DNA of 42,886 nucleotides from a virus, in IMG/VR virus record IMGVR_UViG_3300045988_122335, positions 1 through 42,886 of that record; one strand, written 5' to 3'. A program made the position numbers and the translations under genes. Under the pieces are notes generated by a model. That model did no database searches and was not told where the DNA came from. It saw only the letters and a program-made list of their open reading frames with translations. Numbering within the stretch: position 1 is the stretch's first letter; every line of letters starts with the position of its first letter. Below are positions 8,460 through 42,886 of this stretch, piece after piece.

Positions 8460-9836
8460 TTAATTGCCGTCATATGTTCCTAAAATACCAAGAATTTTGA
8501 CACCTTTTTTAATATTTTCAGGCTTTATATTACTATCTATTGTACTATCTACACTTGGTTGATACACTTTTGTTATACCATTTTTATCAGTAGAGGGCAA
8601 TATCTCTTTATAGAACCCTCCCGTTACTTGTTCAAATAATACTCCTGCATTATCTGTTAAGAGCGTTGTGACGGGATATAGATTTGTTATACCCGTAACC
8701 TCGCCTGTTGCTGTCGGGGTATATATTTGCCCTTGATAAGGTTCATAAGCAGTTGCTGTTGAGCCAAGCTCTAACTTTACATTTTCAAATGTCATAGTTA
8801 CACCAATAGGTGCATTGTATGAAGCATAAAAATTCAATGAATATGTTTTACTTTCTGTTACCGTAAAGCTATTGTCGATAATACCTTTATAAGCGTTATT
8901 TATAATAAATTTATTATTTTCATTATCATATACAGCCCAACCACCTTTATAACTTGTATCTGAACAGGCTACAGTACCACTACAATAATAAGTACCTGCT
9001 GGTAAATAAATATAGCTTCCCACGTTCATTGTTTTTGATGTTGCAGCAGTTTTAAAAGTAAACCCATTAGTTGTTTGAGTTAATTCTACTACACTTGTGC
9101 CAGCTGTTAAAGTAGATTTATTAAATAAATTCTTACCGCACCTTGTTACAGTAACAGTTGAGAAATCTGAAATGTAAGGAGTGTATGCAGTAGCGGTTGA
9201 GCCGAGTTCCAACTGGGGCTTTAAAGTGCCGCTTACAGTTCGGTTTGCCGGAATAACAAGATAACAATTTGTATTGTTTATGTTTTTTGTCGGAGTAAAT
9301 GTTGTGGAAGTGTCTGTTAATAACGGTATATAAGCAGACTGCCCTTGCGCTGAGTCGTAAATAAAGATTGTAGCGCTGCCTCCGAAAGAATAATTTCCGC
9401 TTGCAGATAAAGTATAAGTTACCCCTTGTTTTAAGTTCATAGCTTTGTAAACAAAATAAAATGTTGCTTGACCGGTCGAAGTTCCGCTAAAACTTATACT
9501 ACCATCTGCATTAACCGTAAAAGTAATTCCATTGAGTGTTTTTGTTGTATCAAAGTAGGGGTACGGTATTAAATTTTTACTACCCAATTTAGCATTTAAT
9601 GTTTTAGGTGTATTATCAGGATATTTCAACCGCACACCAATTTTATGCTCACTAAGAACATTAGTAAAATTTTCTAATATTCTTTCTTCGCCTTTGAGAT
9701 TTTCTATTTGTGCGGCTTTATCAACAAGGTCTTTATATTTTTCAGTAGCCGTTGCTGTGATACCTTTTGCGGTAATTATTTCAGCTAATCTTTTCTGTTG
9801 ATTTTTGGCGTCTTGTAAATAACCTGCTGTTGACAT
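8460..9836 (-). CDS. Tail fibre / receptor-binding protein with two lectin-like modules
   Basis: 458 aa. Two modules each end in the signature LELGSTATAY(T/E)PY. The start overlaps the upstream stop (TAATG). Confidence 0.7.
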   Translation of the reverse strand: MSTAGYLQDAKNQQKRLAEIITAKGITATATEKYKDLVDKAAQIENLKGEERILENFTNVLSEHKIGVRLKYPDNTPKTLNAKLGSKNLIPYPYFDTTKTLNGITFTVNADGSISFSGTSTGQATFYFVYKAMNLKQGVTYTLSASGNYSFGGSATIFIYDSAQGQSAYIPLLTDTSTTFTPTKNINNTNCYLVIPANRTVSGTLKPQLELGSTATAYTPYISDFSTVTVTRCGKNLFNKSTLTAGTSVVELTQTTNGFTFKTAATSKTMNVGSYIYLPAGTYYCSGTVACSDTSYKGGWAVYDNENNKFIINNAYKGIIDNSFTVTESKTYSLNFYASYNAPIGVTMTFENVKLELGSTATAYEPYQGQIYTPTATGEVTGITNLYPVTTLLTDNAGVLFEQVTGGFYKEILPSTDKNGITKVYQPSVDSTIDSNIKPENIKKGVKILGILGTYDGN

Positions 9837-12322
9837 TATGCAATTACCTCCTCATCTGTCGGTTCTTCATCACTTTGTGTTGATACATCATTGAACATTG
9901 TGGCAAGAATAGAGTTTATATTACCTATTGCATCATCTACATATTTTTTATTAACAACGGCTGTATTATTTGTTCCAACATTGTCAACTGACATATTCTT
10001 AGCTGACAAACTTCCATCAATATTAACATACTTATTAGAAGATTGCGTTGAGCCTTTAATAAGGTTGCCAATATTTAACTGATAATCTCCAGTTTCTTCT
10101 CCGTCTACACCGTTGCCAATTAAGATACAATTTTTATTAGCTTTTAAATTATTACCGGTATAATAACCTATTATAGTATTCTTAGTTGCATCATCTTGAA
10201 GATTTTTACCAGAATTAGCACCCATAACAACTTGGGAATTACCTCTTCTACCCGAGTCAGTACCAATTATAACATTGTTAGAACCGGTAATTCTATAACC
10301 AGCATTTCTACCAATAGCAATATTATCAAGAGAATTTGAGCCATAGGTTAAACTATTAAAACCAATAGCAATATTGTAATTACCTTTATTTTCAGTATTA
10401 TTACCTGCTATAGCGTTGTGACCAATGGCAATATTTTCGTTACCACCGTCAATATGGTATAATGAAGAACCACCTATACTAATATTACTATTACCAGACT
10501 TACTGTTTAATTGACTATCTGCACCGATAGCAATATTATAATTACCAGTTCTATTTTCTCTTAAACTATGCGTTCCTATTGCTATATTACGTTGACCTGT
10601 CTCAATATGTCTACCAGCTAATGCACCAATACCAATGTTTCTTGAACCCGCATTAACAAACTGTAAGGCTTCAAAACCTATACCAGTATTCCAAAAACCA
10701 GAAGTATTATTAGCTAAGGCATTATATCCAAAGCCAACGTTTCCATTACCTGTAGTATTGTAAGAACCACTGCCAACACCTATAAAAGCATTAGATTTAT
10801 TAACTGTATCAGCTCTTACTTCAAATGATGTTGAACCATTGCTATCAGTGATTTTATATTTACCTACATAAGTACCAGTTATTTTGTGTAATTTAATATT
10901 AGAAATAGTCCCAGTAAATGTAGAACTTGGTATAAATTCAAGATAGATTGTACCGTCTGTGCTACCTTTTGATTTAACACCAATATTTAATGGTTCTTCC
11001 TGACCGTATAAATTGAATAAATCAGAATTGCCTATACGAACCATTATATTATCAACGGTTGGAGCTATACTACAATTAAAGGTTATATCATACAAAGTTC
11101 CTTCAGCTGTATAGTCGCTCCCTGTTATGGGGTATTTCAAAATACTTGTATTACCTGAAGTATGTGTAAATCCTGTTGTAGCATTGCCAGTCCAACCATC
11201 TGTTACCCAAGTACCTGTTTGTGCTGTGATTATTTCTGTACTATCTATTTGAGCGTGTTCTTCAGCTTCAGTAGTTGTTATATTTCCAACAGTGTCATTT
11301 ACATATTTCTTTGTAGCATAATCACTTAAATCAACCATACCTGCTAATACATCATACTTATACTCAGTACTTGTTGTATTAACTATAACTACATTCGTTC
11401 CTGCCGGATAGGTCTTGCCAACGCCCTCGACAAAGTTTGAATTTGTGGTAAACTCACTTTCGATATTGTAGACAAAGCCCTCGGTTTCTTTACTCGGTGT
11501 AGGCAAGTCAGCTATTGTTGGTATAGAACCTTTAGCCTTGTAAACTGATGATACTTGTGTAGCTATTGCATTTTCAACAAAGCCCTTATTTACAGCATAA
11601 TCTTTTTGTGATGAAGATGTCGGGTTTTTGATATTGGTAAAAAATATGCCGTCATTTTGAATTATTATTTTCCCAACAGTATTACCGTTAACATCTTTAA
11701 GGTCAAGTTCTCTATCGCTTGCACCGTCAACAATGTCAGCAAAATAATCTTGCTTCTCAAGTAAGGAATTTTCAACATCTTTACTGTTCGCTTTTTCTGA
11801 CAACGCTTTTGTAACGATTTTATTCTGTACTGCGTTTTCAGAAGTTGTGGACAATCCATCGTCAATAGTTATTTCGGGTACATTGGCAGATATAACATTA
11901 TTGCCGTCAATGGTAATGTTATCGCCCGCTGTAAGTTTGTCTTGCTTTGATTGTTTCAACTGTTCAATTTCGCTTGGCGTATAAGGTTTTGGCTCTGTTC
12001 CGATTGTATCAGTGCCATACTTAACCTTTATATCCTCGCTCCAAAGTGTTGGCAGGACGGTATCAGTTTTAGTGCCGAATATACCAATTCGGAATGAGCC
12101 ACTTTCAGCCATAACCTCATACGGTATAGTAACAGTATTAGATAGTTTATCTAATATAATATTTATGGGCTGACCGTGACAGCGTTTGAAAACGGCAGTA
12201 ACGGCATAGTCTGTCCAAAAATCGTCAAGACCAATTTGACAAGTTTTGCCTACCGTCCCTCTTACAAATTCCTCGGCAGTAACAATGTCTATATTTTTTT
12301 CGTGTACTTGTAATGTCAACAT
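9836..12322 (-). CDS. Large tail fibre / baseplate upper protein with beta-helical NIAIG repeat region
   Basis: 828 aa. Position is right for a fibre. It has more than 10 repeats of N(I/N)(A/S/G)IG.x(A/S) resembling YadA-head or fibre repeats. The N-terminus has a ...LWSEDIKVKYG pattern. Confidence 0.7.
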   Translation of the reverse strand: MLTLQVHEKNIDIVTAEEFVRGTVGKTCQIGLDDFWTDYAVTAVFKRCHGQPINIILDKLSNTVTIPYEVMAESGSFRIGIFGTKTDTVLPTLWSEDIKVKYGTDTIGTEPKPYTPSEIEQLKQSKQDKLTAGDNITIDGNNVISANVPEITIDDGLSTTSENAVQNKIVTKALSEKANSKDVENSLLEKQDYFADIVDGASDRELDLKDVNGNTVGKIIIQNDGIFFTNIKNPTSSSQKDYAVNKGFVENAIATQVSSVYKAKGSIPTIADLPTPSKETEGFVYNIESEFTTNSNFVEGVGKTYPAGTNVVIVNTTSTEYKYDVLAGMVDLSDYATKKYVNDTVGNITTTEAEEHAQIDSTEIITAQTGTWVTDGWTGNATTGFTHTSGNTSILKYPITGSDYTAEGTLYDITFNCSIAPTVDNIMVRIGNSDLFNLYGQEEPLNIGVKSKGSTDGTIYLEFIPSSTFTGTISNIKLHKITGTYVGKYKITDSNGSTSFEVRADTVNKSNAFIGVGSGSYNTTGNGNVGFGYNALANNTSGFWNTGIGFEALQFVNAGSRNIGIGALAGRHIETGQRNIAIGTHSLRENRTGNYNIAIGADSQLNSKSGNSNISIGGSSLYHIDGGNENIAIGHNAIAGNNTENKGNYNIAIGFNSLTYGSNSLDNIAIGRNAGYRITGSNNVIIGTDSGRRGNSQVVMGANSGKNLQDDATKNTIIGYYTGNNLKANKNCILIGNGVDGEETGDYQLNIGNLIKGSTQSSNKYVNIDGSLSAKNMSVDNVGTNNTAVVNKKYVDDAIGNINSILATMFNDVSTQSDEEPTDEEVIA

Positions 12323-14268: not shown

Positions 14269-14688
14269 TTAATATTCGATAAATGCAAGCCGTACCTTAT
14301 CCATAAGCACCTCACCATTGCGAATAAGCAAGGGTGTAAATGTTATATCGGGCATATAAAACCCCCCTTGTTCATATGTGTGTGTATCAAAGCAATAATG
14401 AATAATTTTCAGCTTTCGTTCCTTTGCGTTTATAATACCACTATTTAAGATATTTTGCAAGGACAATAGTTCCCTTTCAAATAAGGGTGGTGTATTCCAT
14501 TCCAGTTTTGACCTTGTGTGGTCTAAAGTGTTGCGGTGTAGTTTGCCCAAATTGTCTTGATAACTGTCAAGGTCTTGCCGTTGGTTCGGAGTGGAAACAT
14601 AGCTTGTTAAAGATATATACTTATTCGGTATAGGTACAGCCGTGTTATCACTCGCCCTTATTACTTTTACAAAATATGTGTCAAACAT
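14269..14688 (-). CDS. Distal tail protein-like small tail component
   Basis: 139 aa, immediately downstream of the tape measure. Confidence 0.45.
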   Translation of the reverse strand: MFDTYFVKVIRASDNTAVPIPNKYISLTSYVSTPNQRQDLDSYQDNLGKLHRNTLDHTRSKLEWNTPPLFERELLSLQNILNSGIINAKERKLKIIHYCFDTHTYEQGGFYMPDITFTPLLIRNGEVLMDKVRLAFIEY

Positions 14689-17177: not shown

Positions 17178-17213
17178 ATAATCACCACCTTAATGGTTAT
17201 TATTTAATATATA

Positions 17214-26105: not shown

Positions 26106-26167
26106 AAAGAAAGGAGATAATGAAAACGTCTAAACAAAACTTAAAAAGCTTATCAGAGTTCAAATAC

Positions 26168-26196
26168 AATATACCACATATTTTCTCATTTGTCAA
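26168..26196 (-). promoter_or_regulatory. Promoter P2 upstream of terL
   Basis: The minus strand reads TTGACA-aatgagaaaatatgtgg(17)-TATATT. Confidence 0.6.
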
Positions 26197-26200
26197 TAGC

Positions 26201-26229
26201 AAAAAAGCAATAACCATTACAGCTATTGC
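26201..26229 (-). terminator. Intrinsic terminator T1
   Basis: Minus-strand RNA GCAAUAGC-UGUAAUG-GUUAUUGC followed by UUUUUU. Confidence 0.55.
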
Positions 26230-26264
26230 CTTTCCGCTATATCCAAAATTATTACTGCATAGCC

Positions 26265-26293
26265 ATTATATCATACCCATTACTATTTGTCAA
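26265..26293 (-). promoter_or_regulatory. Promoter P1 (perfect consensus), overlapping the last codons of the 26283..26567 gene
   Basis: The minus strand reads TTGACA-aatagtaatgggtatga(17)-TATAAT. Terminator T1 lies about 40-60 nt downstream. Confidence 0.6.
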
Positions 26294-26567
26294 GCTCTAA
26301 TAAAAACGCAACATTGCAAGCAATATGGTACAAGTGCGGCAAGCCACTATCCTCATCAACCCCGTGCGGCTCTTTTAGCCATTTGCATATGTGCCGCATT
26401 AAAGCCGCCCTATATCGTTTAGGGTCAACATTCTTATAACTGCCCTCGCCATATTTTTCAGCACCGTGTGTCATAACAATGCCCACAGCCTCTATTATCT
26501 CCGCAGGCACTAAATCCAACCTCGGCTTGCCACCGTCGTGCTTTAATCCGTCTGTAACAACATCCAT
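26283..26567 (-). CDS. dATP/dGTP pyrophosphohydrolase-like (DUF5664-type) protein
   Basis: Motifs KHDGGKPRLDLVP, THGAEKYGEGSY, RYRAALMRH and DSGLPHLYHIACNVAFLLE are typical of this phage family. RBS is GAGGTGG. Confidence 0.7.
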   Translation of the reverse strand: MDVVTDGLKHDGGKPRLDLVPAEIIEAVGIVMTHGAEKYGEGSYKNVDPKRYRAALMRHICKWLKEPHGVDEDSGLPHLYHIACNVAFLLELDK

Positions 26568-26611
26568 TATAATTCCACCTCTCTTAAATATCAGCCATAA
26601 GCCATACCGCC

Positions 26612-26641
26612 ATTATAGCACCCCGCCCCGGCGCTTGTCAA
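26612..26641 (-). promoter_or_regulatory. Dedicated promoter of the pyrophosphohydrolase-like gene
   Basis: The minus strand reads TTGACA-18 nt-TATAAT. Confidence 0.55.
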
Positions 26642-26912
26642 CCTTTGCATAAATTCTGCATTTTTATTCATTTTCTATGCACAAACCAGCAAAAAAACAA
26701 CTTTGTAAATTTTTAAAATCGGGAGGGGTAACCCGACCGCCGGCTGACATTTTCGGAATAGGGTTCGGGGTGGGTTTTGTTCCCGGGGCGCCTAAAAATA
26801 AAGGTTTTCCCGTTTCAAATACGAACGAATACGAAACAAATACACCGAGGCGGCAATATTTATCATACTTTGTCGTACTCGGTAGTATAAAAGGCGATAA
26901 CATTACCCCCCG

Positions 26913-26947
26913 ATAATTTAATTATCTTTACATTTCAATTAAATTAT
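26913..26947. repeat. Perfect 11-bp inverted repeat (ATAATTTAATT - 13 nt - AATTAAATTAT) in the AT-rich non-coding region
   Basis: Read directly: 26913-26923 is the reverse complement of 26937-26947. Confidence 0.7.
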
Positions 26948-27075
26948 ATAGTTATGTGCTTTTAATAAGTATGTGCAATATATAAATATATTATAATATA
27001 GTCTTGTGCTTATGCGTATGAGCTTATACAGACAATAACAATATAATAACACGGTGCAAGGCTTAGGGCTATTAT

Positions 27076-27140
27076 AGAGCATTTTAGGGGGTTTATATAA
27101 TACTGTGGTATACTCTGCATATTATGAATAAATAGGCATA
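27076..27140. repeat. Left inverted-repeat block flanking the plus-strand cassette
   Basis: AGAGCATTTTAG (27076-27087) and TAAATAGGCATA (27129-27140) are exact reverse complements of 29327-29338 and 29305-29316. Their order is mirror-symmetric. Confidence 0.7.
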
Positions 27141-27173
27141 TTAAAACATTTATTTTAATATTAAAAATTTTAC

Positions 27174-27202
27174 TTGACAAATATATAATATAGTGATATA
27201 AT
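27174..27202 (+). promoter_or_regulatory. Perfect consensus promoter of the plus-strand cassette
   Basis: TTGACA(27174-27179)-17 nt-TATAAT(27197-27202), with an AATATTAAAAATTTT tract just upstream. Confidence 0.7.
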
Positions 27203-27235
27203 AAAGACAACGAAAGGAAAGGAGAAAAAAACAAG

Positions 27236-27352
27236 ATGAAAACGGAAGATATTAAAAATCTATTGCATTTGATTATTGAACTTCTGAAACGTTGTAAAAC
27301 GGTTGAGGAAGCTATAAAAGCAATTTGCAACGCTTACGACATCCACGAATAA
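27236..27352 (+). CDS. 38-aa helical micro-protein, first ORF of the plus-strand cassette (not in the ORF track)
   Basis: RBS is GGAAAGGAGA. Translation is MKTEDIKNLLHLIIELLKRCKTVEEAIKAICNAYDIHE*. GC-rich hairpins GCCGGG-8 nt-CCCGGC and AGCC-TTTCG-GGCT follow. Confidence 0.5.
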   Translation: MKTEDIKNLLHLIIELLKRCKTVEEAIKAICNAYDIHE

Positions 27353-27427
27353 CAAACGCCGAGCCGGGCGGCATAACCCGGCAGCCTTTCGGGCTTGTTG
27401 ATAAAATAATTAAAAGAGGTTTTAAAA

Positions 27428-27664
27428 ATGGAAAGATGCACACAGAAACAATTGAAAAATCTTGTGAACACTGGCGCGGCTGTTGATATTACCCGCGGAA
27501 ACAACGAAACCCGCGAACAAATAATCAATGAAGAAGAATATTATACCCAAATAGGATATAGCGCGGGCGTTTATGGTTGTAATGGTGTGTTGTTAAAAGG
27601 TCATAAAACGGGCAAATTATACGCAGTTACGAGCAGAACAAACGCAATATATATTTTTAATTAG
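27428..27664 (+). CDS. Hypothetical protein (78 aa)
   Basis: RBS is AAGAGG. The conserved-looking core IGYSAGVYGCNGVLL...TGKLYAVTSR reminds me of small proteins on Firmicutes mobile elements, but I have not verified this. Confidence 0.6.
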   Translation: MERCTQKQLKNLVNTGAAVDITRGNNETREQIINEEEYYTQIGYSAGVYGCNGVLLKGHKTGKLYAVTSRTNAIYIFN

Positions 27665-27761
27665 CAGAGTGGCGGCGGCTTTGGCTGCCGTTAATGCGGC
27701 AGGGCATACGGTCACAAGCCCCGAAAGCCTGAAAGCATAATTTTATATTGAGGTGTAAAAA

Positions 27762-28148
27762 ATGAAAACAAACAACAAAAAAGCACGCGAGAACATACGC
27801 AAATACATTATTGCAAACTTTACCCCGGAGGGCTACACGGACAACCCCCCGCAGGAGTTCCCCGAAATAGCCCGCTTTATTTTATCCACTTTCAGAAAAG
27901 AAAAATATAACACCCCGGAAGACTTCCGATATTATCGGAAAAATGAACTTGCAGCTTTTGCGGATTGGTGCGCGGGGCTTTGCGGTGTTCTTGATACTTG
28001 TTATTTTTATAACCGTTCCGCCGTTGGTGACCTCGGCGCAATTCTTAAAGAAACAGAAGAAGAAAAAGCGCGCTATACAGAAGAACAAGCCGAAAATACA
28101 TTAACTTTTTTAATTTATCGCGAGTTAATAAAAGGGGCTACAGAATAA
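27762..28148 (+). CDS. Hypothetical protein (128 aa)
   Basis: RBS is GAGGTG. Its stop overlaps the start of the ATPase gene (TAATG). Confidence 0.6.
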   Translation: MKTNNKKARENIRKYIIANFTPEGYTDNPPQEFPEIARFILSTFRKEKYNTPEDFRYYRKNELAAFADWCAGLCGVLDTCYFYNRSAVGDLGAILKETEEEKARYTEEQAENTLTFLIYRELIKGATE

Positions 28149-29140
28149 TGTATAACGGTGAACAATTGGCGCAGGCGCTGACCGTTTTCGGTCTGCCCTG
28201 CGTTTTTAAAGAAATGAAACAAACCCCACGAAATACAATATATTATTTTGATTTTACGGACTGGACCAAAGTCACAGCGGGCAGGCGTAAAGCAGCGCTC
28301 GACCGTATTTCTTTATATGCTAAGCGTCAATTTAATTATATTGACAGTAATATATCACATTTTGCAATATATCACGCTGAAGACAATTATAATATTGTTC
28401 CGCTTTTCGGGCTTGCCTTGCCTGATGATAATAACTATAAATTCATAGCAGGCATAAACGAGGACGGCGAACAAGTCAATATTTCATTAGACGAAACGAC
28501 ACATGCACTAATCGCAGGCACTACCGGCAGCGGTAAAAGCGTATTTTTGAAAAGCCTTTTATATTCTTTGTTGACTACAAATAACCCCGATAAAGTAAAA
28601 TGTGCTATTATAGATAAAAAGCGCAGTTTGAACTATTGGAGCAGGGCGGCGCATTGTTTTAAAGTCGTTAATGATGATATTTCGGCAATAGCTTTATTAA
28701 ATATTTTTCAAAAGGAAATGTATAACCGATATGAAGAATTACAGCGCCGAGGGCTTGAAAAAAATATCAGGTTGTTTCCTAAATTGGTATTGATAATTGA
28801 CGAGCTGGCGGATTTAATGCTGACCGACCGCAAAGCAGAAATTGAAAACAAGCTTGTTTCGCTTTGTCAGCTCGGGCGCGCTGCTGGTATTCATTGCGTA
28901 CTTTGCACCCAGTCGCCCCGCGTTGCCGTTGTCAGTGGTTTAATTCAAGCGAACACCCCGACAAAGATTATATTTAAAACAGCCAACACGCGGGAAAGCG
29001 TGTTGTGTTTGGGTCATTCGGGAGCGGAAAAGCTGCTTGGGAATGGTGACTGCCTTATAAAATTACCCGATAAAGTAAAAGATATTAGAGTGCAAACACC
29101 GTTTGCAAGTGATGAAGACTTTAGAAACTGCATAGAATAG
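28148..29140 (+). CDS. FtsK/SpoIIIE-family DNA translocase ATPase, motor domain only (no TM segments, no gamma domain)
   Basis: Walker A is LIAGTTGSGKSVFL and Walker B is LVLIIDELADLM. Also present are LGRAAGIHCVLCTQSP, IQANTPTKIIFKT and GAEKLLGNGDCL. The N-terminus resembles the FtsK alpha subdomain. Confidence 0.85.
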   Translation: MYNGEQLAQALTVFGLPCVFKEMKQTPRNTIYYFDFTDWTKVTAGRRKAALDRISLYAKRQFNYIDSNISHFAIYHAEDNYNIVPLFGLALPDDNNYKFIAGINEDGEQVNISLDETTHALIAGTTGSGKSVFLKSLLYSLLTTNNPDKVKCAIIDKKRSLNYWSRAAHCFKVVNDDISAIALLNIFQKEMYNRYEELQRRGLEKNIRLFPKLVLIIDELADLMLTDRKAEIENKLVSLCQLGRAAGIHCVLCTQSPRVAVVSGLIQANTPTKIIFKTANTRESVLCLGHSGAEKLLGNGDCLIKLPDKVKDIRVQTPFASDEDFRNCIE

Positions 29141-33846: not shown

Positions 33847-34110
33847 TTACCCAAAATCTAATGCTTGCCCACAGCAATCACAATATTTATGACTATTATT
33901 GCTTGTAAAATCTATATCTTCAATACAGTGATTACATATAGGACATAATACATATCCCTCATCAATTTTTACTTTCTTTGGTATCTGCTTTTCAAGTGCC
34001 TCTATTGCCATATTTAATGCTTCTGTTATGTAAATTGAAAATGGTTCTTTGCAACTGTGGAGTTCATTATGAATTTTAATTCTTTTAATTGATTCTTCGT
34101 AATCAAACAT
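33847..34110 (-). CDS. Zinc-ribbon protein, paralogue family member 3 (CGQALDF)
   Basis: ...AIEALEKQIPKKV...CPICN...YCDCCGQALDFG. Confidence 0.6.
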   Translation of the reverse strand: MFDYEESIKRIKIHNELHSCKEPFSIYITEALNMAIEALEKQIPKKVKIDEGYVLCPICNHCIEDIDFTSNNSHKYCDCCGQALDFG

Positions 34111-34747
34111 CGCCGTTTTCCACCTCTTCCTCTACATAGCACCAGCTTTGCGGCGGTCTTGTCATAGGTTGCCCTATGTCCTTAACATCACATATACCGT
34201 CAATGCCCATATATAAGCAATCCCCGCAATTCTTTTGGTCGCAATGCGTTTTTCCAAAAGCCATAAAATCATCTAAATCTTTTGGCTTGTCGTAAATAAC
34301 AAGGTCGGAGATATGCCATCCAAATAATTTGCTGCCGTTGGCATAATTTTTAAGCTCACCGAGCGATAATCGGCATTTATTTAAGTAATCATAATCCAAA
34401 TTGTAAGCTGTCAAATTATCATCTACGCGCCGTAACTTCATATCGCTGTTGTTATACCCGCAAACCGCCAGTCGGTCTATTTTGTTACATATAAATTCGC
34501 CTATGACTTTGCCGCTTAATGTAGTATTTCCGACACGCTCAAGTTCGTTTTGGTATTTTTTGTTTGTTGCAACATATATTTTACTGTTATAGTGCGACCT
34601 TGTTAGCAACTCAGACAGAGTACAATAAATATAGCACTTGAACGGCGTATCGCATTTCGGTCTTGTTTTTCTGACCTCTATTGTTTTCTTACCGCTTGCT
34701 ATCAGCTCGCACCATTTTGGTTTAATACTAATCAAAACACTTTTCAT
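34103..34747 (-). CDS. ASCH (PUA-like) domain protein with Cys-rich C-terminal extension
   Basis: The N-terminus ISIKPKWCELIASGKKTIEVRK is the ASCH signature. The C-terminus is HCDQKNCGDC...RPPQSWCYV. Confidence 0.7.
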   Translation of the reverse strand: MKSVLISIKPKWCELIASGKKTIEVRKTRPKCDTPFKCYIYCTLSELLTRSHYNSKIYVATNKKYQNELERVGNTTLSGKVIGEFICNKIDRLAVCGYNNSDMKLRRVDDNLTAYNLDYDYLNKCRLSLGELKNYANGSKLFGWHISDLVIYDKPKDLDDFMAFGKTHCDQKNCGDCLYMGIDGICDVKDIGQPMTRPPQSWCYVEEEVENGDV

Positions 34748-35442
34748 ATCTTTACACCATCCATTTCCGCCCGCAAACTTTCTTTGATGTAATAGTCAAC
34801 GCCGATTTTCTTGCAAAGCGCCTCGGCTTTTCTCCCAAATTCCGCCCAATTTATATCTGACTTGTGGTAGTTCAGTTTTCCAATTTTCACCTTATCGGCA
34901 ATCGCCGCTACCAAGTGCAGATTGATAAAAAACTCTCTTTCGTTCGTTACAGGCTCGAAAGAAATCCAAGTTTTAATTCCTCGGCTATGCGCCTCCGCAA
35001 GAGCGTCAACTCTCGCTTTCCACAAAGGGTCTTTTCCATTCCCGATACCGTCAAGGGTGATACCGTACCAATCGTTCTCATCGAGCAAATCGAAATCCCT
35101 GCTCCCGTCACCTTTGGTGAGTATCTGCACATTGTTTCCACTTTCCTTAATGGCTTTGATTATCTCTTGTGTGGGTGTTGTATCGTAACCGGTCGGATAA
35201 GGGTCACAGGTAAAGCAGAGATGAATAAGTTTCCCGGTTATCTTCTCTTTTTCAAGCTGTTGCTTCGTTGCTTTGACTATATCAATTCTCGGCTCTACAT
35301 TTGTGTGAAATGCCTCACGGTCTTTATGCAGAACATTCGGGGCGAAACAGTAAAAACAGCGGTGCGGACAGCCCGTGTAAATATTCAGCGCATAGTCGCC
35401 GTATTCTTTTGCTTTGCCTTTCGGCTCATATATTGGTTTCAT
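34744..35442 (-). CDS. Radical SAM enzyme (SplB / DNA-photolyase-like small rSAM)
   Basis: IYTGCPHRCFYCFAP contains the CxxxCxxC cluster motif. Preferred start is the ATG at 35442, after GGGAGGG. The track start is a TTG at 35448. Confidence 0.75.
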   Translation of the reverse strand: MKPIYEPKGKAKEYGDYALNIYTGCPHRCFYCFAPNVLHKDREAFHTNVEPRIDIVKATKQQLEKEKITGKLIHLCFTCDPYPTGYDTTPTQEIIKAIKESGNNVQILTKGDGSRDFDLLDENDWYGITLDGIGNGKDPLWKARVDALAEAHSRGIKTWISFEPVTNEREFFINLHLVAAIADKVKIGKLNYHKSDINWAEFGRKAEALCKKIGVDYYIKESLRAEMDGVKI

Positions 35443-35444
35443 AT

Positions 35445-35531
35445 TCAATCCCTCCCGTTAGCACTCAGTATTGCACATATTGCAAAGCCTATCAGTGCGC
35501 CAATTATAAGTCCAATTATAAAGTTAATCAT
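35445..35531 (-). CDS. 28-aa hydrophobic micro-ORF (not in the ORF track)
   Basis: Translation is MINFIIGLIIGALIGFAICAILSANGRD*. Its start overlaps the stop of the preceding micro-ORF (ATGATTAA). Confidence 0.35.
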   Translation of the reverse strand: MINFIIGLIIGALIGFAICAILSANGRD

Positions 35532-36284: not shown

Positions 36285-36313
36285 ATAATAGCATATAGTA
36301 ATTTATTTGTCAA
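36285..36313 (-). promoter_or_regulatory. Promoter sharing a 27-bp block with the early promoter at 2756-2784
   Basis: The minus strand reads TTGACA-17 nt-TATTAT. The stretch 36306-36332 is identical to 2777-2803. Confidence 0.65.
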
Positions 36314-36338: not shown

Positions 36339-36662
36339 TTATAACATTTCTCCAAATATTGCTTCTAATACAGCCACTACAATTGAATTGCCTGCTTGCT
36401 TATATAACTGGCTATTTAAATTTACTTGCGCAGCTTTTTCAAAATCTTCATCGTCAAAATCCATAAGCCTAAAACATTCTTTGGGGGTCAGTTTACGGAT
36501 TCGCACCTTTTCTTTAATTTTAGGTTCGGAATTGCCGCCCTGACAGGTATGTATAGTCGGGCTAACTCCGTCCGTGGCATAAACTCTTTTGCAGTTTTCG
36601 TTTATCTTATCCCACTTCCCACCTTGCATTGTTCCGTATAATTTACAATTTATTTTTTCCAT
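36339..36662 (-). CDS. C5-cytosine DNA methyltransferase, C-terminal fragment (one target-recognition segment plus motifs IX-X)
   Basis: Contains RVYATDGVSPTIHTCQGGNSEPKI, RIRKLTPKECFRLMDF (motif IX) and AGNSIVV (motif X). It is in the same frame as 36744..37568 but separated from it by two stop codons. Confidence 0.75.
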   Translation of the reverse strand: MEKINCKLYGTMQGGKWDKINENCKRVYATDGVSPTIHTCQGGNSEPKIKEKVRIRKLTPKECFRLMDFDDEDFEKAAQVNLNSQLYKQAGNSIVVAVLEAIFGEML

Positions 36663-36743
36663 TCCAATACCCCGTTTGTAGTCTGATTCCCAAGTCCCTT
36701 ATAATCTCTTGCCATAAGTGTGTTTGCAATATTGACTACCTTT

Positions 36744-37568
36744 TCAATTTGTTTGCCTTGTTTCGATAATAATATCCCAACTGTGCCTGTCTGTGCTTGC
36801 CCGTCCGCTTGAGCGAATTGTGTGGCTAATCTCTCTCTCTACATTAACAGTTTGTAAACACTTTTCGACCTTGTTTTCAGATATATAATATTTTTCTTCG
36901 ACATTCTTATCCAATAAATCTTTTAACCGAGTTTTTAAAGGCTTTGGTTGCGGAAATTCGTAATAGAAATCGCCGAGCAAGCTAACGCAAAATGTACGAT
37001 TGCGGTTTTGCGGTACGCCAAAATCTTTAGCGTTTAAATCTTTATACCAACTCTTGTAGCCCAAGCTTTCAAGTTTTTGCAGCCAACTGTTAAAGTCTGC
37101 TATATTTTTCTCTGCGTGTACCTGTGGAACATTTTCCATGAGCAACACTTGCGGAAGCTCGTTACATTCGTCCAATAACCTTTCGACTTCCCACAACAGC
37201 CCCGACCGTGTACCGCTGTTCTTCGACATCCCCTGTTGTCTGCCGGCAATGCTCAAATCAGTGCATGGGAACGAATAAGTCAATATGTAGCAGTATTTAT
37301 TGGTATCGATTATACCCAAATCATCGGCAGTAATTTGCGTTACATCGCTTGTCTCGAAATTCGTGCCGTGGATTGCGTTATAGCTCTTGATTGCGTATTT
37401 ATCAAACTCACATACTCTGTAATGCTCAAACGGTACACCGAGCCGTTCCAAAGCCTTTGCTTGCGCTCCTATCCCGGCGAACAGCTCAATCAAACGAATA
37501 GGTTTATCAATCCTAAACTTTTTAGCGCCGTCAAACATTCCTATTTGTGAGCCAAACCAATCGCTCAT
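36744..37568 (-). CDS. C5-cytosine DNA methyltransferase, N-terminal fragment (motifs I-VIII plus one target-recognition segment)
   Basis: Contains ELFAGIGAQ (motif I), SFPCTDLSIAG (IV), LLMENVPQV (VI) and QNRNRTFCVS (VIII), then SHTIRSSGRASTDRHSWD. Confidence 0.8.
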   Translation of the reverse strand: MSDWFGSQIGMFDGAKKFRIDKPIRLIELFAGIGAQAKALERLGVPFEHYRVCEFDKYAIKSYNAIHGTNFETSDVTQITADDLGIIDTNKYCYILTYSFPCTDLSIAGRQQGMSKNSGTRSGLLWEVERLLDECNELPQVLLMENVPQVHAEKNIADFNSWLQKLESLGYKSWYKDLNAKDFGVPQNRNRTFCVSLLGDFYYEFPQPKPLKTRLKDLLDKNVEEKYYISENKVEKCLQTVNVEREISHTIRSSGRASTDRHSWDIIIETRQTN

Positions 37569-42767: not shown

Positions 42768-42886
42768 ACTTTTTTTAATGGCATTTTGTTTAACTTATAT
42801 CTTTCCCAAATAGTACCCTCAATATAGTATTTTCTAATTGTTTAATAATATCCCCGCCGTAGGCATTTCGGGTTATGTCGATAAAT
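42768..42886. repeat. Terminal direct repeat, copy B (identical to 1..119)
   Basis: See copy A. It includes a duplicate of the 3' end of the 23..682 gene. Confidence 0.9.

Follow-up and report, generated by a model that had tools for sequence, protein, structure and literature searches.

A dinucleotide repeat as candidate selector of recognition modules in a split phage C5-cytosine methyltransferase

Why would a phage carry a C5-cytosine methyltransferase gene in pieces, with three segments resembling target-recognition domains (TRDs) spread over two reading frames? The question is raised by a locus in IMG/VR record IMGVR_UViG_3300045988_122335, of which the whole contig (positions 1–42,886; hereafter the window) was analyzed. 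An original prediction had described the split gene, its three TRD-like segments and their two frames, all of which were confirmed at their coordinates, and had offered a two-subunit enzyme, a decaying multispecific enzyme, recoding or phase variation, and sequencing indels as possible readings. On balance, and with some reserve, we favor a functional, naturally split and multispecific C5-cytosine methyltransferase with an N-terminal subunit that is switched by a hypermutable dinucleotide repeat, that is, a phase-variable enzyme. The candidate switch, a (GA)n tract at 36840–36830, was absent from the original prediction.

The (GA)n tract at the frame boundary

The gene lies on the minus strand. 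Its larger open reading frame (ORF), ORF-N (37568..36744; 274 aa), encodes methyltransferase motifs I–VIII followed by TRD1 and terminates in a TGA at 36746–36744, the end of this frame (frame A) reading ..VNVEREISHTIRSSGRASTDRHSWDIIIETRQTN-TGA. The smaller, ORF-C (36662..36339; 107 aa; ATG at 36662–36660), is in the same frame and contains TRD3 INCKLYGTMQGGKWDKINENCKRVYATDGVSPTIHTCQGG (36653–36534) and motifs IX–X (36506–36342). ORF-N and ORF-C match positions 2–228 (E 1.4e-50) and 224–322 (E 2.1e-13) of the PF00145 profile, respectively, and C5-methyltransferase motifs I (FxGxG), IV (PC), VI (ENV), VIII (QxRxR), IX (RxxTxxE) and X (GN) are present in canonical order. The 81-nt gap between the two ORFs had been credited with two in-frame stops; it holds one, the other being the TGA of ORF-N itself, and the rest of that description was correct. 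The +1 frame (frame B) is open from 36838 to 36653, where it reads RERLATQFAQADGQAQTGTVGILLSKQGKQIEKVVNIANTLMARDYKGLGNQTTNGVLEWKK, and ends in a TAA at 36652–36650.

Frames A and B part exactly at an A(GA)5 tract, AGAGAGAGAGA (36840–36830), which lies where motif VIII gives way to the variable region, is read as the codons GAG AGA GAG A.. and is the putative frame selector; we refer to it as simple sequence repeat (SSR) 1. At n = 5, translation continues into TRD1 ISHTIRSSGRASTDRHSWDIIIETRQTN (frame A, 36747..36830). The same DNA encodes in frame B a 30-aa spacer, RERLATQFAQADGQAQTGTVGILLSKQGKQ (36749..36838), which is open in all clade members and less conserved as a peptide than TRD1. It leads into TRD2 IEKVVNIANTLMARDYKGLGNQTTNGVLEWKK (frame B, 36653..36748), which is followed directly by the TAA and is out of frame with ORF-N in the window. 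Each of the three segments matches the variable region of intact single-chain homologues in BLASTP searches (TRD1, E 2e-9; TRD2, E 5e-19; start of TRD3, E 2e-5). TRD2 also aligns with the TRD segment AVSHTLSASDWRGLNRNQKQNAVVE of M.SPRI, the motifs IX–X of which are very similar to those of ORF-C. The closest solved structure, and best PDB match, is M.MpeI (E 3e-50), residues 307–387 of which align with TRD3 and motifs IX–X. Motif IV (37271–37263) reads FPCTDLS in the window clade, with PCT where nearly all homologues have PCQ; this variant is presumably tolerated, because it is conserved under purifying selection.

No other (AG/CT) repeat in the 42.9-kb window reaches five units; such a repeat arose in 10 of 300 Markov simulations. 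When the length of the tract was edited in silico from n = 3 to 9, the frame of ORF-N ran into TRD1 at n = 5 and 8, into TRD2 at n = 3, 6 and 9, and into an immediate stop at n = 4 and 7. Natural relatives with identical flanks (ctgttaatgt / ttagccacacaatt) occupy several of these states, carrying (GA)3 (L131), (GA)4 (L134), (GA)5 (the window, L004 and L005) or (GA)6 (L135), and (AG)11 is found at the tract in L139 and L140, a lineage with 78% identity in the N-terminal core. The closest database proteins (85–95% identical) fall into three product classes: frame A products of 269–276 aa, reading ..VNVERE-ISHTIR.. and ending QTN* (P0008, P0009, P0036, P0077 and P0091); frame B products of 299–307 aa, reading ..VNVERE(R)-LATQ..NIANTLMARDYKG..WKK* (P0002, P0003, P0005-7, P0069 and P0111); and one frame C product of 246 aa, ending ..VNVERD* (P0010). 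The database proteins thus agree with every product predicted from repeat length.

The TRD1, TRD2 and stop states each recur in several sublineages, and the dual-frame layout, in which frame A encodes TRD1, the +1 frame encodes TRD2 and a stop terminates each of them, is kept in the lineage with 78% core identity. Closely related pairs place the differences in the repeats themselves. L135 and L136 differ within the gene at SSR1 and SSR3 alone; L139/L142 and L140/L141, which come from different samples, show 0 mismatches over 2868 nt and three single-G indels, one in each poly-G tract (G9, G7, G7 versus G8, G8, G8). In L138/P0004, a further natural variant, a single frame encodes both TRD1 and a TRD2 allele.

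Selection on the individual parts was measured as pN/pS, the ratio of nonsynonymous to synonymous change, against nine to ten relatives (pS 0.3–0.9). The values obtained were 0.12 for the N-terminal core and 0.08 for motifs IX–X, which lends indirect support to a catalytically active enzyme that would form 5-methylcytosine, and 0.36, 0.32 and 0.32 for TRD1, TRD2 and TRD3, respectively. Both TRD1 and TRD2 are open in every case, also when out of frame. Among genomes in which TRD2 is out of frame with the N-terminal core, its pN/pS was 0.33, and 0.16–0.20 in deep comparisons (pS about 0.8–0.9); the corresponding value for TRD1, in genomes where that module is out of frame, was 0.18. Modules that are not read in a given genome thus appear, from these substitution patterns, to be selected as protein, which is predicted by recurrent switching and not by decay.

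The junction with the small subunit

The junction between TRD2 and ORF-C contains an A6 run (36658–36653) within a stop/start overlap, ATGGAAAAAATAA, in which the ATG of ORF-C stands 7 nt upstream of the frame B TAA. A Shine-Dalgarno (SD)-like GGGG (36670..36673 by direct reading; GGAG in L004) lies 7 nt upstream of this ATG and is at the same time part of the conserved codons that specify N-G-V in TRD2. The split, the ATG and the SD-like GGGG/GGAG at this distance are kept in eight of the nine clade genomes compared, the fused L131 being the exception, and in the same eight the frame B stop overlaps the ATG that opens MEK(I/T)(N/K)CKLYG. The run at the junction varies, reading AAAAAATAA, AAACGATAA or AAAAGATAA, and AAAAAGATAA in one genome, where it fuses the frames. 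Relatives with the same stop/start overlap have AAACGA or AAAAGA in place of A6, so that the run is conserved neither as a homopolymer nor as a slippery heptamer.

No stable RNA structure was found downstream of A6 (minimum free energy −3.4 kcal/mol, z +1.2; 182 of 200 shuffled sequences fold at least as well), and the RNA fold downstream of (GA)n was not significant (z −1.4). Slippage or −1 programmed ribosomal frameshifting on A6 was rejected as a candidate mechanism, given that the run is not conserved, is without downstream structure and is of a type, poly-A, that is not enriched in the family. The junction fits a conserved two-cistron arrangement with stop/start overlap rather than programmed A6 slippage, because the stop and the overlapping ATG are kept where the A-run is absent. 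The conserved ATG, the SD-like site and the purifying selection on motifs IX–X apart from ORF-N suggest that the small subunit has its own translation start.

TRD3 occurs in more than one form. The allele found in relatives, SPTLTTCGGGNQEV, carries G7, G8 or G9, and ORF-C is intact with G8 only; the window allele, SPTIHTCQGGNSEP, reads CAGGGCGGC at that place and is without a poly-G tract. In L131/P0001, an extra base at the junction fuses TRD2 and TRD3 in one frame. Within the in-frame TRD2-TRD3-IX-X fusion of L131, L132 and L133, TAG replaces the CAG (Gln) found in the window at 36547–36545, in TRD3, and motif IX is altered (RKLIPKEY). This TAG may simply be a nonsense mutation, the copy being in decay; conceivably, it is read as Gln.

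Proposed model and competing explanations

In the model that we propose, slipped-strand mispairing at (GA)n during replication of the phage DNA would generate subpopulations with different ends of the N-subunit: TRD1 at n = 5, as in the window, TRD2 at n = 6 or 3, and no TRD, with termination right after motif VIII, at n = 4. ORF-C, which supplies TRD3 and motifs IX–X as an intact small domain, would be translated on its own and constitutively, and would assemble with the N-subunit; assembly into an active enzyme is proposed by analogy with M.AquI and with the complementation of M.SssI fragments (PMC3404938). TRD1 and TRD2 would act as independent recognition modules. In the TRD2 state, where the upstream stop lies on the ORF-C start, translational coupling might, speculatively, also change the level of the C-subunit. 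Progeny phage would then differ in the sequences that they methylate, a form of bet-hedging against host restriction enzymes and against methylation-dependent restriction, and through the switch the phage population can probably vary the methylation that protects it.

Several points weigh against this model. The length differences are known between assemblies, from which switching inside one phage population is extrapolated, and among known phase-variable tracts (GA)5 ranks with the shortest, so its rate may be low. With this short tract and a TRD3 that is without poly-G, the window would represent the least mutable end of the device. TRD1 may be no stand-alone module but one half, the proximal one, of a bipartite TRD completed by TRD3; when the intact homologue P0015, which combines TRD1-like and TRD3-like segments in a single chain, was modeled with AlphaFold2 (predicted local distance difference test score (pLDDT) 84 and predicted template modeling score (pTM) 0.86 overall), the TRD1-like stretch had a pLDDT <50. 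For the short TRDs, pN/pS was calculated from few sites and from pairs that are not independent, although the values agree nonetheless, and for TRD1 the overlap with a second open frame distorts synonymous rates. The nonsense codon in TRD3 and the altered motif IX of L131 suggest that some lineages decay. More generally, the assembly of the subunits and the separate function of the TRDs are predictions.

Part of the same evidence would be accommodated by a fixed two-subunit methyltransferase without switching, in which the (GA)n differences are ordinary indels at a slippery spot, TRD2 (or TRD1) is a leftover, and only the present ORF-N and ORF-C matter. The conserved split and ORF-C start are as expected for such an enzyme, (GA)5 and A6 are both short, the window allele has lost the poly-G of TRD3, suggesting stabilization, and the variation in tract length is known from comparisons between assemblies. 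We nevertheless consider this explanation unlikely: whichever state a genome is in, its out-of-frame modules have stayed open and show purifying selection; the two TRD states and the stop state turn up repeatedly across sublineages; the diverged lineage combines the longer (AG)11 with the same dual-frame layout; and it is precisely the variable region in which SSRs are strongly enriched throughout the family. The two-subunit enzyme envisaged by the original prediction is itself supported, not only by the split, ATG and SD-like site of the eight genomes but also by the pN/pS of 0.08 for motifs IX–X, though these are never joined to ORF-N. Repeats can also cause RNA polymerase slippage, and programmed ribosomal or transcriptional frameshifting, by +1 at (GA)n or close to where TRD1 ends and by −1 on A AAA AAT, could in principle yield a single chain with two or three TRDs. 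A −1 slip on A6 geometrically joins TRD2 to ORF-C just after its ATG, and L131/P0001 has TRD2 and TRD3 fused via an extra base at the same site. The replacement of the A-run by AAACGA or AAAAGA where the stop/ATG overlap is kept, the RNA folding results at both sites, the shortness of A6 for transcriptional slippage and the lack of poly-A enrichment in the family make this improbable. Of the recoding or phase variation proposed earlier, phase variation therefore stands, and its site is (GA)n rather than the A6 run.

The gene could also be the inactive, decaying remnant of a single-chain multispecific methyltransferase, its frames broken by random indels. It is in pieces, L131 has an in-frame TAG together with substitutions in motif IX, and intact single-chain homologues exist; however, pN/pS of 0.08–0.12 in the catalytic parts and 0.2–0.4 in the TRDs (pS up to 0.9), the same frame layout and stops across lineages down to 78% identity and the integrity of all catalytic motifs render this highly improbable. 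The tandem TRD modules of the earlier proposal are borne out and its decay is not, all parts, including the out-of-frame modules, being under purifying selection. Sequencing or assembly indels in one uninterrupted gene are hardly credible. Both frame changes do fall at or near low-complexity runs, but the DNA of the split region is base-identical in three independent assemblies from different projects (ENA ERZ27260840, Logan SRR28428399 and ERR1137635), dozens of relatives have the same architecture, and the other long genes of the window are unbroken, those for terminase, portal, major head (capsid), tape-measure and endolysin (lysin) proteins all being intact. The exact ORF-N protein is present on eight contigs.

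Family, genome context and known systems

The relatives of the window gene were surveyed as a set of 90 non-identical phage and prophage genes, drawn from collections of viruses, metagenomes and genomes. About 35 of the 90 are intact single ORFs, and the remainder are broken; these calls come from a rough automatic classification and the counts are approximate (L113, for example, was scored as broken yet encodes an intact database protein). The intact homologues combine TRD1-like, TRD2-like and TRD3-like modules variously in one frame, while 40 of the 54 broken loci have TRD-like segments in two or three frames. G-runs of at least 7 occur 49 times in the variable regions (0.85 per kb, with a length peak at 7–9), against 0.043 per kb in the flanks and 4.9 expected, and (AG)n repeats of at least four units occur 20 times against 4.3 expected, corresponding to enrichments of about 20-fold and about 5-fold, respectively. 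Poly-A is not enriched in the variable regions of the family, and no poly-C was found on the coding strand in this set. Across all repeat types pooled, the enrichment was weak (117 versus 71 expected), owing to the abundance of poly-A in AT-rich DNA; the split by type places the signal in poly-G and (AG)n. The presence of SSRs is associated with broken frames (Fisher p = 2e-6).

Longer arrays are found as well. The TRD regions of individual loci carry tetra- and pentanucleotide arrays, including (AACAG)8, (GACA)7 and, in a pair of related loci associated with Treponema, (GACAA)12 versus (GACAA)11. Loci with long repeats are L007/L118, L014, L017 and L081, and (AG)20 followed by A9 is among the repeats there. 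Streptococcus Javan prophages, which are from cultured isolate genomes, have a comparable split (for example L144, Javan117, record 9253–10572), with two coding sequences (CDSs) annotated as 'type II R-M methylation subunit' and 'DNA-cytosine methyltransferase' and a TRD-like segment in a third frame between them; the first junction there is an A6 run, which is not an enriched repeat type. We tentatively put forward, as a serious possibility, that a large family of C5-methyltransferases of gut and rumen Clostridia and Treponema phages and prophages (and of Streptococcus prophages, with their junction at A6) encodes arrays of TRD cassettes in different frames, separated by hypermutable repeats such as poly-G, (AG)n, (GACAA)n and others, and that slippage during replication continually reshuffles the cassettes that are translated. 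Such genes would form a combinatorial contingency locus against classical and methylation-dependent restriction, with the window as a simple three-state member. With its short tract and without poly-G, the window gene is a comparatively stabilized member of this kind, and the wider family pattern is the more striking one.

The 119 terminal nucleotides of the contig are identical (1–119 = 42768–42886), which we read as an assembler k-mer overlap; the contig is therefore a complete circular or circularly permuted genome of a tailed phage, of about 42.77 kb. The phage is of gut type. A search of GenBank phage DNA returned no close relative (best match 67% identity over 43% of the query), and the best matches in genome collections, at 60–67% identity over the aligned segment, were metagenome-assembled genomes of Clostridia and one of Gastranaerophilales (Cyanobacteriota). 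The methyltransferase is surrounded by a replication module (RecT/SSB/DnaD-like/HNH). Just downstream of it, within 34103–35448 on the minus strand, lie genes for a radical-SAM (S-adenosylmethionine)-domain protein (234 aa; PF04055 in the precomputed calls of the collection, phrog_13321) and for a 214-aa protein (phrog_3136); together these may form a second DNA or nucleotide modification module. In relatives, genes resembling phosphoadenosine phosphosulfate (PAPS) reductase adjoin the methyltransferase. The ORF-C stop is directly followed by a promoter-like site close to the consensus, TTGACA-17-TATTAT with TG upstream of it (36285–36313, minus strand), so that the methyltransferase ends a transcription unit, and the genes after this site (a 167-aa ORF and the radical-SAM-like ORF) may start a new one. 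Elsewhere in the window, a gene block at 26120–29140 is on the plus strand, opposite to the rest of the genome, and includes an FtsK/SpoIIIE-like ATPase (28148–29140). A perfect triple hexanucleotide, (AGCCGT)3 at 625–642, lies inside ORF 23–682 and is in-frame, hence without a frame switch; further tracts are TGTGTGTGT at 14377–14385 and ATATATAT at 17207.

Phage methyltransferases are a main means of counter-defence against restriction-modification, and methylation also exposes phages to methylation-dependent nucleases. If the model is correct, a stochastic choice of recognition module would hedge both threats without gene gain or loss, and if the family-wide proposal also holds, one gene would provide a phage population with many methylation specificities. 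Annotations routinely present genes of this type as pseudogenes or divide them into two unrelated CDSs, as in the Streptococcus Javan prophages. A metagenome consensus hides heterogeneity, and anti-restriction capacity may therefore be underestimated. In a literature search of incomplete coverage, such that an earlier description elsewhere is possible, we found no repeat that selects alternative TRDs in overlapping frames and no repeat-punctuated TRD arrays in phage methyltransferases.

The multispecific C5-methyltransferases M.SPRI, M.Phi3TI and M.Rho11sI of the Bacillus phages SPR, phi3T and rho11s resemble the window gene in being phage-borne, without a cognate nuclease, and in having an enlarged variable region of tandem TRD modules. 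In these enzymes one polypeptide carries all the TRDs, in a single frame and without repeats, whereas in the window the TRDs are divided between two frames and two ORFs. Natural two-polypeptide C5-methyltransferases are exemplified by M.AquI and, in a looser sense, by M.EcoHK31I, and complementation between fragments is known for M.SssI, for M.HhaI and for M.BspRI (PMC3404938). M.AquI is split in the variable region, as is the window gene, its large subunit containing motifs I–VIII plus a portion of the variable region and its small subunit the distal variable region and motifs IX–X. No repeat-controlled alternative C-terminus has been described for M.AquI or M.EcoHK31I, and the window gene is likened to them by its layout, with subunit assembly as a prediction.

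SSR-driven changes of specificity are known from the poly-G tract in hsdS of NgoAV (Type I) and from Type III mod phasevarions (PMC9577141, PMC7383803). In these systems, as proposed for the window, stochastic changes of the methylation pattern arise from an SSR within a gene that determines specificity, but they are bacterial and chromosomal, methylate N6-adenine and have separate S subunits, and none has recognition domains in overlapping frames. In phages, reports of contingency loci are recent and chiefly concern receptor-binding proteins. Examples are poly-G tracts in the receptor-binding proteins of Campylobacter phages and, as a separate case, T2/T4 loci; a poly-G tract in the methylase of the Bordetella phage BPP-1 was noted and not studied (PMC12633550). 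They share with the model for the window hypermutable repeats in phage genes that serve bet-hedging, but mostly concern host-range proteins, with no TRD switching described.

The nearest parallel in enzyme family is provided by Mycoplasma, where M.MpeI-like CpG methyltransferases phase-vary via poly(G) or poly(GA) tracts in mid-gene (PMC9465063). The Mycoplasma M.MpeI/M.SssI family and the window gene share the enzyme family, the kinds of repeat (GA and G), their mid-gene position and the principle that the frame stays open or not depending on tract length. The Mycoplasma enzymes, however, are chromosomal, have a single TRD and are switched ON or OFF, whereas the window gene is phage-borne and consists of two ORFs, with two conserved TRDs in alternative frames and three outcomes, and its relatives, unlike the Mycoplasma enzymes, have several repeats between several TRD cassettes. 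If our reading is correct, the concept of the phase-variable methyltransferase would extend from bacteria to phages, from ON/OFF control to a choice between recognition domains in overlapping frames, and from single repeats to repeat-punctuated cassette arrays.

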